Positions 393 through 3,714 of a stretch of 64,000 bases of DNA are shown here, piece by piece. The position numbers and the translations under genes are program-made. This DNA is from Spirochaetia bacterium (GTDB lineage Bacteria; Spirochaetota; Spirochaetia; UBA9216), in NCBI GenBank assembly GCA_963677925.2, contig CAXXYH010000003.1, forward strand, positions 512,001-576,000, read 5' to 3'. Each line of letters begins with the position of its first letter. The stretch's first letter is position 1. The notes beneath the pieces were generated by a model, which ran no database searches, was not told the origin of the DNA, and saw only the letters and a list, made by a program, of their open reading frames with translations.

Positions 393-423
393 AAAAAAAA
401 GAGGCAGCTAATGGGCTGCCTCT
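393..423 (-). terminator. Rho-independent terminator downstream of rpsU
   Basis: 9-bp stem AGAGGCAGC/GCTGCCTCT (400-408/415-423) followed on the minus strand by a U-tract (plus-strand A run 393-400). Confidence 0.85.
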
Positions 424-453
424 CTGAACAAAACCGCATATAGCGGCGGATTG

Positions 454-663
454 CTAATAGTTCTTCATGTTCTGCAGCTTTCTCTGCTTTTTCATCTGCT
501 TGCGCTGCATAGCTTTTGTCTTTCTATTCTTGATAGTTGAAGGCTTTTCAAAGTATTCGCGTTTTTTCCATTCGCGGATAATACCCTCTTTCTCAACCAT
601 TCTCTTAAAGCGTTTTATAGCCTTTTCGAGCGGCTCGCCTTCATCAATGTTAACATGAGCGAT
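454..663 (-). CDS. rpsU: 30S ribosomal protein bS21 (probable ATC start at 663; ORF track starts at GTG 672)
   Basis: [12 protein letters not shown]...REYFEKPS S21 signature; GTG 672 lies inside the SD sequence, and ATC sits 8 nt after GGGGG. Confidence 0.95.
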
Positions 664-688
664 AGCAATCACCCCCTTTTGTGTATAA

Positions 689-1603
689 TTATTGTTTAAT
701 ATTACTTATTATAAAGTCTTTGTCAATAAGGCTTTCAGTAAGCCAGGTCTCAGGTTCAACAGCAACTCCTGCAACCCTAATCTCCCAGTGAAGGTGGGCT
801 CCGGTAACCAGTCCTGTAGCTCCTACTGTACCGATAAGCTCCCTTTCTTTGAGTATTTTACCAGCCTCCGTGTTTATTTCCTGCATATGATAATAAAGGG
901 AATAGACACCGGGAAGATGCTCTATTACCACAGTATTACCCGTAAGAATTCTCATATCAGAGAAAACAACCTTCCCCGGACCGGGTGAATAAATCGGAGT
1001 TCCAGGGACAGCGGAATAATCAATACCATTATGTAATGATGTTGCAGTTGTTCCGTCATCATAGAGATAGCGTCTTCGGTCACCGAAGAATGAAGTCTGA
1101 CGGAGTGCGGTTACCGGAAGTGATAAATCAGAACTCATATATACAGCATCCGGATCGACCGACGTCAGTATACCATAGAGGATCTTCCATTCTTCGGCTT
1201 TTCTGATATCTTCAGACTGACGAAGCGTAGACATTGATTTTGTCAGAGGAATGTCCTCACTTATGAAATCGCGTTTAATAACATTTAAAACAGCTTCAAT
1301 ATGAAGATTTTCTCCATCGCCTGCAGAGACAGTGTAAATACCCGGCGAGGCGTCCGAGGGAACACCAAGCATTGCTATCACTGCCGTATAACCTTCAAGC
1401 ACAACCTTAAAGCTTTCAGTCTTCGCAATTGTCCGTCCGCTTCTCTTAAGCAGAACTTCCGCACCGGAGTCTCCCGCTCCCTTTAAAACTGCTGTAATCA
1501 CCCCGCCCTGAGGAACATTATCACTAAGAATAAGTTCGGCAGCCGGCAGAAATGCCGCAGTAATTACAAACGCGAAAAATAACGCTGAAACTTTCTTTAT
1601 CAT
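689..1603 (-). CDS. M23 family metallopeptidase, exported
   Basis: Signal peptide; HNGIDY, YYHM and GAHLHWE zinc motifs. Confidence 0.9.
699..726 (-). promoter_or_regulatory. Putative sigma70 promoter for rpsU inside the end of the M23 gene
   Basis: TTGACA (726-721) N16 TAATAT (704-699). Confidence 0.5.
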
Positions 1604-3714
1604 CTTTTCATATCCAATATTGTCAGCTGAAGGGTTTCCTTATTCATAAAATAGTTCCGGCCCAGCCTGAAAACTATATCAATTCTCTCTCCGGTACTGA
1701 AATCCCGGTTGGCTTTTTCAGCTGCGTTCCAGTAGACCGCAGGCCATTTAAACTTATCTGCCTCAAACAGAAGCCTGAGGTGATTCTTTTCATTTTTTCC
1801 CATTATTTCCATATTCAGAATCTTTATATTTCTGGCCAGAAAAACAAGGGGCGGGCTGCTTTCGCCATAGGGTTCGAACATCTCAACAGTTTTTATCAGA
1901 TCAGGATTCAGATATTTAACAGGAAGTTCAGCATCGATATTAAGGCTTGCCTCAGTTGTGTCAGCCCCTTTAAGCCCGGGAGCAAGCTCCTCTATGCGGC
2001 TTGTAAAATCTGCAAAACGTGAAAGCTCCATACTGAAGCCGGCTGCATAATCATGGCCGCCGTAATCTATAAATATATCAGATGCACCTGCAATAAAATC
2101 CTTAACGTTAATATTCATTGCACTTCTTATGGAGCCAACCGCCTTATCTTCCATGATGGAGACGGCCATAGCCGGTACGCCGAAGAAATTTGCAAGCCGA
2201 GAAGCAATTATTCCCGTAATTCCGCGGTTGAGATCCTTATCGGCAACAAGGACCAGTCTGGCCTCAAGGTCCTGATAACTCCGCTTGGCAGAAGGAAGCA
2301 GTTTGTTCCATATATCTTCACCAAGTTTCTTGCGCTGACGGTTGAGTTCCACAACTTCAGATGTAAGGCGGTTAATATCTGCAGGTTCGCTGCTAAGCAG
2401 AAGCTCGGCAGCCCTGGAGGGAACACCCATTCTTCCGGTTGCATTGATTACCGGAGTAATCTGCCAGCCGATATCTGTAGTATTAAGTCTGCGCGCAAGC
2501 ATATTCTGTGCTGAAAGCAGGCTTCTAAGTCCCTCACGCTCTGTCTTTTCAACGACCTTCATTCCCCGCTTAATCAGAATACGGTTCTCGTTCTCTATGG
2601 GCATCAGATCGGCAATAGTTCCAAGTGCAACCAGGTCAAGATCATGCTCTGATTTAAGAACGAAACCCTGGTCCTTCTTCACGATAAAGGTGGTAAACAG
2701 GTTTATAAGAACATCAAGTTCCCCCGGCGGCTTCTCACTGTAGCGGGCAAGGCGGCTGCCGTCCCTCATTTTAAGCAGACTTCTTCCTCTTAGAGACGGG
2801 AATACCTTCCATATTTCGGGAGCCGAATCTATCAAGTGAATATCTGTATTCTGACCGAACACAGATTTAAGCATTCGCAGCTGGGGTTCTGCATCATAGA
2901 CAATTATCTGAAGCGAGAGAAAATCCATCAGTCTTGTGTTCTGCATATCGACAATGCCGGGAGCCAGAGTTTCCGTAATCCGGTCTTCAACAACGAGGTT
3001 TTTCATCCTGACCGCTTCAAGTATGACAGAATCATTCCCGGGACGTACATTCAGCAGGCAGAACTGCTGGTTATATATATCAAGCGATGAAAACCTAAGC
3101 GCCCAGATAACCTTGGATACGACGCCGCAGCCCGCAAGATGGGCAAAGGGATAGCAGCAGTCTTCCATTTTCGGATTTATAATACCGTATGCCGGTGGAA
3201 GGACTTCAGGGCTGTTATGGTGATCAATTACTATTGTATCAATACCCTTTTCATTCGCATATTCAATTTCATTATAGTTGGAAATTCCGCAGTCAACAGT
3301 GATAAGCAGACTTCCGTCAACTTCAGCAAAACTGTCGACTGCCTGCATGGTCAGTCCGTATGGTTCATCACCTGTCGGCAAAGCCCATTCTGCCTCAATG
3401 CCAATCTCTTTAAGGGCATTGTATATAAGCACCGTTGATGTAATTCCGTCGACATCGCGGTCGCCGAAGATCTTAACCCTTTCTTCCTCAGCAGCAGCCT
3501 GCTTAATTCGATCGATAATATCCTCCATTTCTTCGAAAAGAAATGGATTATGCAGATACTGCGAGTCATCTTCAAGATAGAACTTTATATCTTCATTTTC
3601 AATTATACCGCGACGTACAAATATTGATGAGGTAAGAAGATCCAGACCGAAGCGTTCGGATATCTGTCTCACTTTATCTGTGTCGATATCTTTTTTATTC
3701 CATATCATATTCAA
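1600..3714 (-). CDS. recJ: ssDNA-specific exonuclease RecJ with central insertion
   Basis: GDRDVDG, ITVDCG, DHH, GTIAD, INATGR, GGH motifs; C-terminal OB fold. Confidence 0.95.
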   Translation of the reverse strand: MNMIWNKKDIDTDKVRQISERFGLDLLTSSIFVRRGIIENEDIKFYLEDDSQYLHNPFLFEEMEDIIDRIKQAAAEEERVKIFGDRDVDGITSTVLIYNALKEIGIEAEWALPTGDEPYGLTMQAVDSFAEVDGSLLITVDCGISNYNEIEYANEKGIDTIVIDHHNSPEVLPPAYGIINPKMEDCCYPFAHLAGCGVVSKVIWALRFSSLDIYNQQFCLLNVRPGNDSVILEAVRMKNLVVEDRITETLAPGIVDMQNTRLMDFLSLQIIVYDAEPQLRMLKSVFGQNTDIHLIDSAPEIWKVFPSLRGRSLLKMRDGSRLARYSEKPPGELDVLINLFTTFIVKKDQGFVLKSEHDLDLVALGTIADLMPIENENRILIKRGMKVVEKTEREGLRSLLSAQNMLARRLNTTDIGWQITPVINATGRMGVPSRAAELLLSSEPADINRLTSEVVELNRQRKKLGEDIWNKLLPSAKRSYQDLEARLVLVADKDLNRGITGIIASRLANFFGVPAMAVSIMEDKAVGSIRSAMNINVKDFIAGASDIFIDYGGHDYAAGFSMELSRFADFTSRIEELAPGLKGADTTEASLNIDAELPVKYLNPDLIKTVEMFEPYGESSPPLVFLARNIKILNMEIMGKNEKNHLRLLFEADKFKWPAVYWNAAEKANRDFSTGERIDIVFRLGRNYFMNKETLQLTILDMKR

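Follow-up and report, generated by a model that had tools for sequence, protein, structure and literature searches.

The window, by which we mean the whole stretch of 64,000 nucleotides that was analysed, carries on its minus strand the gene rpsU for ribosomal protein bS21, where positions 680..652 read AAAAGGGGGTGATTGCT ATC GCT CAT GTT (Table 1). The product matches the Pfam family Ribosomal_S21 (PF01165) with 71.6 bits against a cut-off of 27, beginning at residue 6 of the form that starts at an upstream GTG, and as the sole match to this family in the 5.04-Mb genome it identifies rpsU as a single-copy gene. Counted from an ATC codon the protein has 69 residues, of which residues 3-68 align with residues 3-68 of PDB 8fmw chain U, a 69-aa spirochaete bS21 (E = 6e-22); with the 71-aa bS21 chains of solved ribosomes the alignment runs from residue 4 to residue 4.

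Table 1. Positions of rpsU, its putative signals and its neighbours in the window.
Feature	Positions	Strand	Basis or remark
rpsU coding sequence, bS21, 69 codons from ATC	457..663	minus	Pfam PF01165; alignment with PDB 8fmw chain U
Very probable start codon ATC, near-cognate	661..663	minus	aligned-codon comparison with relatives
Stop codon TAG	454..456	minus	sequence and ORF list
Spacer TGCT, 4 nt	664..667	minus	T667 could add a U.G pair
Extended Shine-Dalgarno AAAGGGGGTGAT	668..679	minus	12 contiguous pairs with the 16S tail, one G.U
In-frame GTG inside the Shine-Dalgarno	670..672	minus	rejected as start
ORF from GTG, 72 aa	454..672	minus	ORF list
Predicted sigma-70-like promoter, TTGACA 726-721, 16 nt, TAATAT 704-699	699..726	minus	10/12 matches
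Two terminator-like hairpins 3' of rpsU, 447-433 and 425-398 with T run	398..447	minus	sequence
Upstream M23-peptidase gene (ORF)	689..1603	minus
704-aa ORF	1600..3714	minus	overlaps the start of the M23-peptidase ORF by 4 nt (1600-1603)

The predicted promoter of rpsU sits in the last codons of the upstream M23-peptidase gene and would give a leader of ~28-30 nt. With this promoter on one side and the terminator-like hairpins on the other, rpsU appears to be a monocistronic unit with its own predicted promoter and terminator. Further upstream, the 4-nt overlap of the 704-aa ORF with the M23-peptidase ORF suggests one operon preceding rpsU. Relatives from several family codes (the analysis tool's own groupings) have a -35 region of the form TTGACAAAG upstream of rpsU as well. 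No special fold of the leader was found when 101 nt were compared with shuffled controls (z = -0.87). Several lineages (e.g. L024, L027, L066, L069, L079) carry a short hairpin-like inverted repeat, CCC(A)...(T)GGG, directly 5' of the Shine-Dalgarno (SD) sequence; this repeat is absent from the window's rpsU.

The start codon of rpsU

The ORF list opens rpsU at GTG 672-670, the sole canonical in-frame start codon of the gene in the window. A preliminary description of this DNA had instead favoured ATC 663, which stands 8 nt from the GGGGG core of a long SD and yields 69 aa, and had pointed out that the GTG falls within that SD. Its reading of the minus strand and its 8-nt distance are correct, and the position of the only in-frame standard start inside the SD is confirmed by the ORF list and by the pairing of positions 679-668 with the 16S tail. 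To weigh ATC against GTG, we compared the aligned codon in relatives.

An rpsU match was obtained in 40 of 41 genomes of a first sample of relatives, the missing one being 69% complete, and the aligned start codon was ATC or ATA in 36 of the 40, ATG in three and TTG in one (the window's own locus was fetched twice). Species genomes, for the most part assembled from metagenomes, supplied 80 named loci, of which 79 were usable and gave ATC 34, ATA 21, ATG 23 and GTG 1, that is ATC/ATA in 55/79. After pooling and de-duplication by exact sequence, 177 unique loci remained of 190: 60 with ATC, 27 with ATA, 57 with ATG, 22 with TTG and 6 with GTG, while 5 were misaligned (3 with ATG one codon upstream and 2 unresolved). 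ATC and ATA thus account for 87 of the 177 unique spirochaete rpsU loci, with the start codons of distant loci resting on the tblastn register. The preliminary description had proposed an alignment across Spirochaetota in search of ATC, ATT or ATA behind a conserved extended SD: the first and the last did recur, at those 87 loci, and ATT was found at the aligned start in none of the 177. AUU is the classic near-cognate start codon of bacteria; its absence here may reflect ancestry or selection.

ATC/ATA starts are spread over 29 of the 34 family codes of class Spirochaetia that gave a match. The family codes without them are f10, f17 and f27 (ATG), f26 (TTG, Borrelia-like) and f32 (ATG/TTG/GTG, Treponema-like), and relatives with a canonical start carry their ATG, TTG or GTG at exactly the aligned codon. 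Of the 168 genomes with a match that belong to other classes, 43 were chosen for a wide coverage of family codes and contributed one locus each. None of these 43 loci has ATC or ATA at the rpsU start; counted by hand they comprise 16 TTG, 4 GTG, 21 ATG and 2 unresolved, the most distant alignments being rough. A weakly supported rpsU tree of 130 loci, built from codons 2-65, requires a minimum of 7 switches between ATC/ATA and a canonical start, and 21 changes when the five start codons are counted separately. Several lineages have therefore swapped ATC/ATA for ATG, TTG or GTG, which indicates that the weak codon is dispensable.

Could the ATC be an artefact of sequencing, or an ATG of this assembly that mutated recently? 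Only the rarity of ATC starts speaks for such a reading, and we regard it as already refuted and next to impossible, since the window's own family code comprises 11 genomes, from independent assemblies, every one of which keeps ATC, and the sister genome is identical. The preliminary description had considered that relatives might carry ATG at this position; they do so only in the distant Sphaerochaeta-like and Treponema-like lineages.

The GTG at 672-670 deserves more attention as the possible start of a 72-aa protein beginning MIAIAH: besides being the only canonical in-frame codon in the window, a GTG is in frame at -9 in 63 of the 87 ATC/ATA-start loci, and 72-aa forms are common in public gene calls. 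Yet, lying inside the SD, it has no SD of its own upstream, and its frame is not maintained among relatives. Of the 87 ATC/ATA-start loci, 85 contain GGTGA, at a distance from the start of 5 nt in 63, 6 nt in 17 and 4 nt in 5, so that the GTG is out of frame in 22/85; at the 17 loci with the 6-nt distance a TGA stands in frame directly upstream of the start. Going upstream in frame from the start, 23/87 loci reach a stop without passing any canonical codon. Looking downstream, the next canonical codon is residue 22 in 60/87 loci, and its use would cost the protein its conserved N-terminus. Codon 2 is Ala in 83/87 loci, whereas codon -1 would encode 14 different residues, and this contrast between a near-constant and a variable codon indicates that constraint at the protein level begins at the ATC/ATA codon. 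The three extra residues of the GTG form are accordingly not conserved, and solved bS21 proteins align from the ATC position. We therefore consider a GTG start highly improbable. A further in-frame candidate, ATT 669-667, was rejected as well, being 2 nt from the core and in a frame that is not conserved.

The genome encodes one ordinary initiator tRNA, with a CAU anticodon and three G-C pairs in the anticodon stem; its remaining CAU tRNAs are one elongator Met and one Ile2-like. With this inventory, a special initiator tRNA for AUH codons was rejected. As there is one ordinary initiator and no unusual one, AUC must be read with a third-position mismatch, presumably by the ordinary initiator tRNA-CAU. 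Taking the aligned codons of relatives together with the alignment to the 69-aa spirochaete bS21, we consider it very probable that rpsU is translated, as a monocistronic message, from AUC 663-661 by the ordinary initiator tRNA, as far as comparison of sequences can tell; the ATC start and the 69-aa protein of the preliminary description are in this sense upheld.

Public annotation is divided on this point. NCBI entries for these spirochaetes have 69 aa and begin M-A-H/Q/Y/N, with the ATC/ATA codon taken as Met, so the AUC/AUA start is implicit in some NCBI annotation; entry P0071, for instance, equals the translation of named locus L048 except for the first residue, and at L048 an in-frame TGA occupies position -9. 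In JGI, ENA and Logan, the calls mostly give 72 aa (GTG start), 71 aa or 81 aa, and the GenBank entry of Sediminispirochaeta smaragdinae DSM 11293 has 72 aa. Overall, automatic calls disagree among 69, 71, 72, 77 and 81 aa (entries P0001, P0003, P0021, P0028, P0103 and others). The longer calls use as start either the SD-embedded GTG or some other codon upstream, and as a practical consequence many automatic 72-, 71- and 81-aa products of rpsU probably carry a wrong N-terminus. In the full texts covered, which came mostly from outside the subscription journals, neither an AUC/AUA start nor an extended SD is described for the rpsU of spirochaetes; the rpsU pairing-energy trees that supplement PMC9976891 (Figures S8-S13) may hold data on these bacteria.

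The extended Shine-Dalgarno sequence

The 16S tail of the window's genome, present in 3 copies, is GGATCACCTCCTTTCA. With this tail, positions 679-668 form 12 contiguous pairs, one of them G.U, to which T667 adds a terminal U.G; the preliminary description had recognized the long match and its single G.U, but had counted 11 nt. The helix ends 4 nt upstream of the ATC, and the start-proximal GAU of the SD pairs with 16S positions 1533-1531 (E. coli numbering, by an indexing made in this analysis).

Complementarity of this length is rare in the genome and goes far beyond chance. Over ~10.09 million positions on both strands, runs of at least 13 positions complementary to the antiSD occur only at rpsU, at the 3 antisense 16S copies and at one other site. 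This last run, TTGAGGGGGTGATTT, lies on the minus strand at about G000:C4 1475823, and no ORF of at least 50 codons opens 3-7 nt downstream of it.

In terms of duplex energy, the 20-nt window upstream of rpsU reaches -19.6 kcal/mol, compared with -18.7 kcal/mol for the best rival among 15,942 candidate starts of 6,386 ORFs of at least 100 aa and -19.2 kcal/mol for the best rival when up to four starts were taken from each of 18,352 ORFs of at least 50 aa. These rankings used mechanical ORF lists instead of curated gene calls, and spurious ORFs in such lists only make the comparison harder for rpsU. The SD pairing of rpsU is the strongest at any candidate start in the genome. It stands out from a background in which SD sequences are in general use, as pairing of -10 kcal/mol or lower is found in 1,053 SD windows versus 529 mock windows.

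The combination with an AUH codon seems equally particular to rpsU. Among 43 GG[AG]GGTGAT sites in the genome, only that of rpsU is followed after 3-7 nt by an AUH codon that begins a reading frame extended only briefly upstream, and a looser genome scan for the AUH-plus-SD architecture returned only matches internal to long ORFs.

Coupling of start codon and Shine-Dalgarno

Across the relatives, the identity of the start codon goes along with the length and placement of the SD. The mean pairing run is 12.8 at ATC and 14.1 at ATA loci, versus about 10 at ATG/TTG/GTG starts, computed for all loci with the tail of the window's genome on the assumption that the 16S tails of the other genomes are equal to it. 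For the spacing we compared the ATC/ATA-start loci with canonical-start loci of the class that have 60% identity or more. A T comes next after GGTGA in 82/85 ATC/ATA-start loci, versus 22/42 canonical-start loci (A in 12, G in 8). All 85 of the former have 4-6 nt between GGTGA and the start, and the latter range over 4-10 nt. Tight spacing was scored in 82/86 ATC/ATA-start and 12/44 canonical loci, counts in which relatives are not independent and which include only 1 phylogenetically independent pair on supported branches. The longer runs and tighter spacing at ATC/ATA loci indicate that the weak codon goes with a longer, more tightly placed SD, and this near-cognate start with its tightly spaced, extended SD is retained in most of class Spirochaetia.

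Before TTG or GTG starts, GAGAGGGGGTGA is found in other classes of the phylum, so that the strong SD is older and wider in distribution than the weak start codon. The ATG lineages within the sample keep a strong SD of the GGGGGTGA type that stands farther off, 6-10 nt from the ATG, and stops in frame often intervene; such lineages are represented by Sphaerochaeta-like (L071, L077-L080, L083-L086, L089-L090, L094, L096-L100, L104, L108, L110, L113, L115, L121) and Treponema-like loci (L126, L129, L131, L134-L140).

Discussion

To our knowledge, conserved AUH start codons are very rare in bacteria. The known ones, in infC, pcnB and ccpN, are regulatory handles, and E. coli infC, which encodes IF3, is autoregulated through its AUU start. 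Here, an AUH start would mark a ribosomal protein gene in the greater part of a bacterial class, invariably accompanied by an SD of exceptional length and tight spacing. As in sites of the infC, pcnB and ccpN type, the AUH codon stands at the position of the homologues' initiator Met, and no usable canonical start would keep the N-terminus. An AUC/AUA codon behind the strongest SD of the genome looks like a built-in control on the amount of bS21.

How could such a control operate? A helix of 12-13 bp between SD and antiSD that ends 4 nt upstream would make initiation at the weak AUC possible, and the combination of near-cognate start and extended SD could tie the synthesis of bS21 to the condition of the 30S subunit. 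With bS21 placed beside the SD helix, subunits that are free of bS21 might form the full helix and/or might proofread the start codon less strictly. Unfinished 30S subunits that lack bS21 would then translate rpsU, which complete subunits would do poorly, and the outcome would be a feedback that matches bS21 to the number of 30S subunits. The arrangement would resemble a lock with two keys, a helix that is sterically blocked by bS21 and a near-cognate start, and would sense unfinished small subunits. The long 69-aa bS21, the exact start-proximal GAU extension and the published precedents make feedback by bS21-free 30S subunits on rpsU the most economical reading in our analysis, although a tentative one, which we would place between merely possible and evenly poised. 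For the statement in its entirety, comprising the AUC start, the compensating helix and the proposed bS21 feedback, we see the chances as balanced between right and wrong. We also put forward, as a possibility that falls short of probable, that 30S subunits without bS21 act as specialized ribosomes for a single mRNA in a phylum that uses SD sequences, in that they alone would form the full 12-13 bp helix and accept AUC/AUA; bS21 autoregulation would thereby be extended from Bacteroidota to Spirochaetia by a different logic.

Several observations weigh against feedback. The residues that sequester the antiSD are, by the definition given in the accessible part of PMC7797042, unique to Bacteroidetes, the weak codon has been lost in several lineages, and the leader has no special fold. 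Moreover, the window's genome is an SD user, with SD-like pairing about twice as frequent as in mock windows, in keeping with the account of spirochaetes in the same source, and complete ribosomes should therefore also see the SD of rpsU, unlike in Flavobacterium. An alternative is a static arrangement in which a strong SD compensates a weak AUC, or the reverse, to set a fixed output without feedback, and in which the pair would persist since a change in either part alone does harm. All evidence for the AUC start site applies equally to such tuning; the ATG lineages retain a strong SD at looser spacing, as compensation predicts; and in S. aureus AUA/AUU starts behind extended SDs give ~10% of AUG output (PMC13009471, in the part available). 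A ribosomal protein is needed in the amount of the ribosome, however, which makes a weak codon an odd choice for high fixed output, and the rank of the rpsU SD as the strongest of its genome is, following the accessible text of PMC9976891, a mark of autoregulated rpsU in Bacteroidota. On balance we think static tuning rather unlikely.

Sensing of IF3 offers another explanation, in which AUC and AUA would be discriminated against by IF3 and translation of rpsU would rise whenever IF3 is scarce relative to 30S subunits, with no role for bS21 occupancy. Such discrimination against AUH is known for E. coli infC and pcnB (also cited in the available part of PMC13009471), and in E. coli, late defects in assembly let 30S subunits evade scrutiny by IF3 and begin translation more often at AUA, CUG and AGG (PMC6868393, in the portion consulted). 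An IF3 loop is nevertheless not visible in this genome: infC (G000:C4 about 2353045-2353090, minus; locus L122) starts at ATG or an adjacent TTG behind AAAGGAG, and its start region, when examined, contained no AUU/AUA start like those of E. coli and S. aureus. The IF3 level, which the preliminary description had offered next to bS21-deficient subunits as a possible signal, thus has no infC-type AUU loop to be tied to, and IF3 sensing would leave the fixed start-proximal GAU pairs and the 4-6 nt spacing unexplained. We hold it to be improbable. Feedback by bS21-free 30S subunits, in the tentative form given above, is the reading with which we approach the known systems.

The closest of these is rpsU of Flavobacterium johnsoniae and other Bacteroidota, whose autoregulation through an extended SD, cited in the preliminary description, is indeed documented in the accessible parts of PMC9976891 and PMC13000457. 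In F. johnsoniae, a 13-bp SD helix on the rpsU mRNA and bS21 are mutually exclusive in cryo-EM, since the former clashes with the C-terminal helix of the latter (Arpin 2026, PMC13000457), and ribosomes without bS21 translate rpsU better (McNutt 2023, PMC9976891). The criterion used there for rpsU of Bacteroidota, 9-13 consecutive SD pairs with dG below -13 kcal/mol, describes the window's rpsU as well, with its 12 pairs plus U.G at -19.6 kcal/mol. The two systems share the gene, an extended SD of 12-13 bp with one G.U that is the strongest in the genome (here by mechanical ORF lists of at least 100 aa and at least 50 aa), and a short leader, of 25 nt in F. johnsoniae and the predicted ~28-30 nt here. 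They differ in the start codon, AUG in F. johnsoniae and AUC/AUA in Spirochaetia, and the end of the helix seems to lie nearer the start codon here than in Flavobacterium, by the indexing made in our analysis. They differ above all in their setting. Apart from rpsU, the Flavobacterium genome is without SDs because its antiSD is sequestered by bS21, bS18 and bS6, whereas the window's genome uses SDs and shows neither antiSD sequestration nor an SD-poor genome in the sense of the accessible part of PMC7797042 (1,053 vs 529 windows), where Jha et al. place spirochaetes with the groups in which SDs are highly prevalent and, by definition, restrict the occluding residues to Bacteroidetes. In their available parts, PMC9976891 and PMC13000457 name Bacteroidia and Chlorobia only, and Spirochaetota only for bS21 paralogues of Borrelia. 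The spirochaete rpsU would thus work like rpsU autoregulation in Bacteroidota and yet not be a member of that system as defined, because antiSD sequestration is missing and the start codon differs as well. If the feedback is true, control of bS21 by the composition of the ribosome would not be peculiar to SD-blind Bacteroidota and would represent a wider principle with more than one construction.

The weak start finds its nearest counterpart in S. aureus, where every AUA/AUU start found (infC, ccpN, cvfC1 and citZ) lies behind an SD extended by start-proximal A-U pairs, according to the part of PMC13009471 at hand. An AUH start with a start-proximal A-U extension of the SD (GGAGGUGAU type), conserved among relatives, is common to both, and in S. 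aureus the output is below that of AUG. The genes are different, and rpsU has 0 occurrences in the text of PMC13009471. The authors consider there that an E. coli-type bS21 would sterically hinder the extended helix; the bS21 of Firmicutes is short and was not seen in the S. aureus map, as described in the same part of that article, in contrast to the long 69-aa form encoded in the window. With E. coli infC, finally, rpsU of Spirochaetia would share the principle of a translation-machinery gene whose conserved near-cognate AUH start provides a handle for feedback via start-codon proofreading, while the gene and the sensor differ and infC of the window's genome itself has a canonical start.
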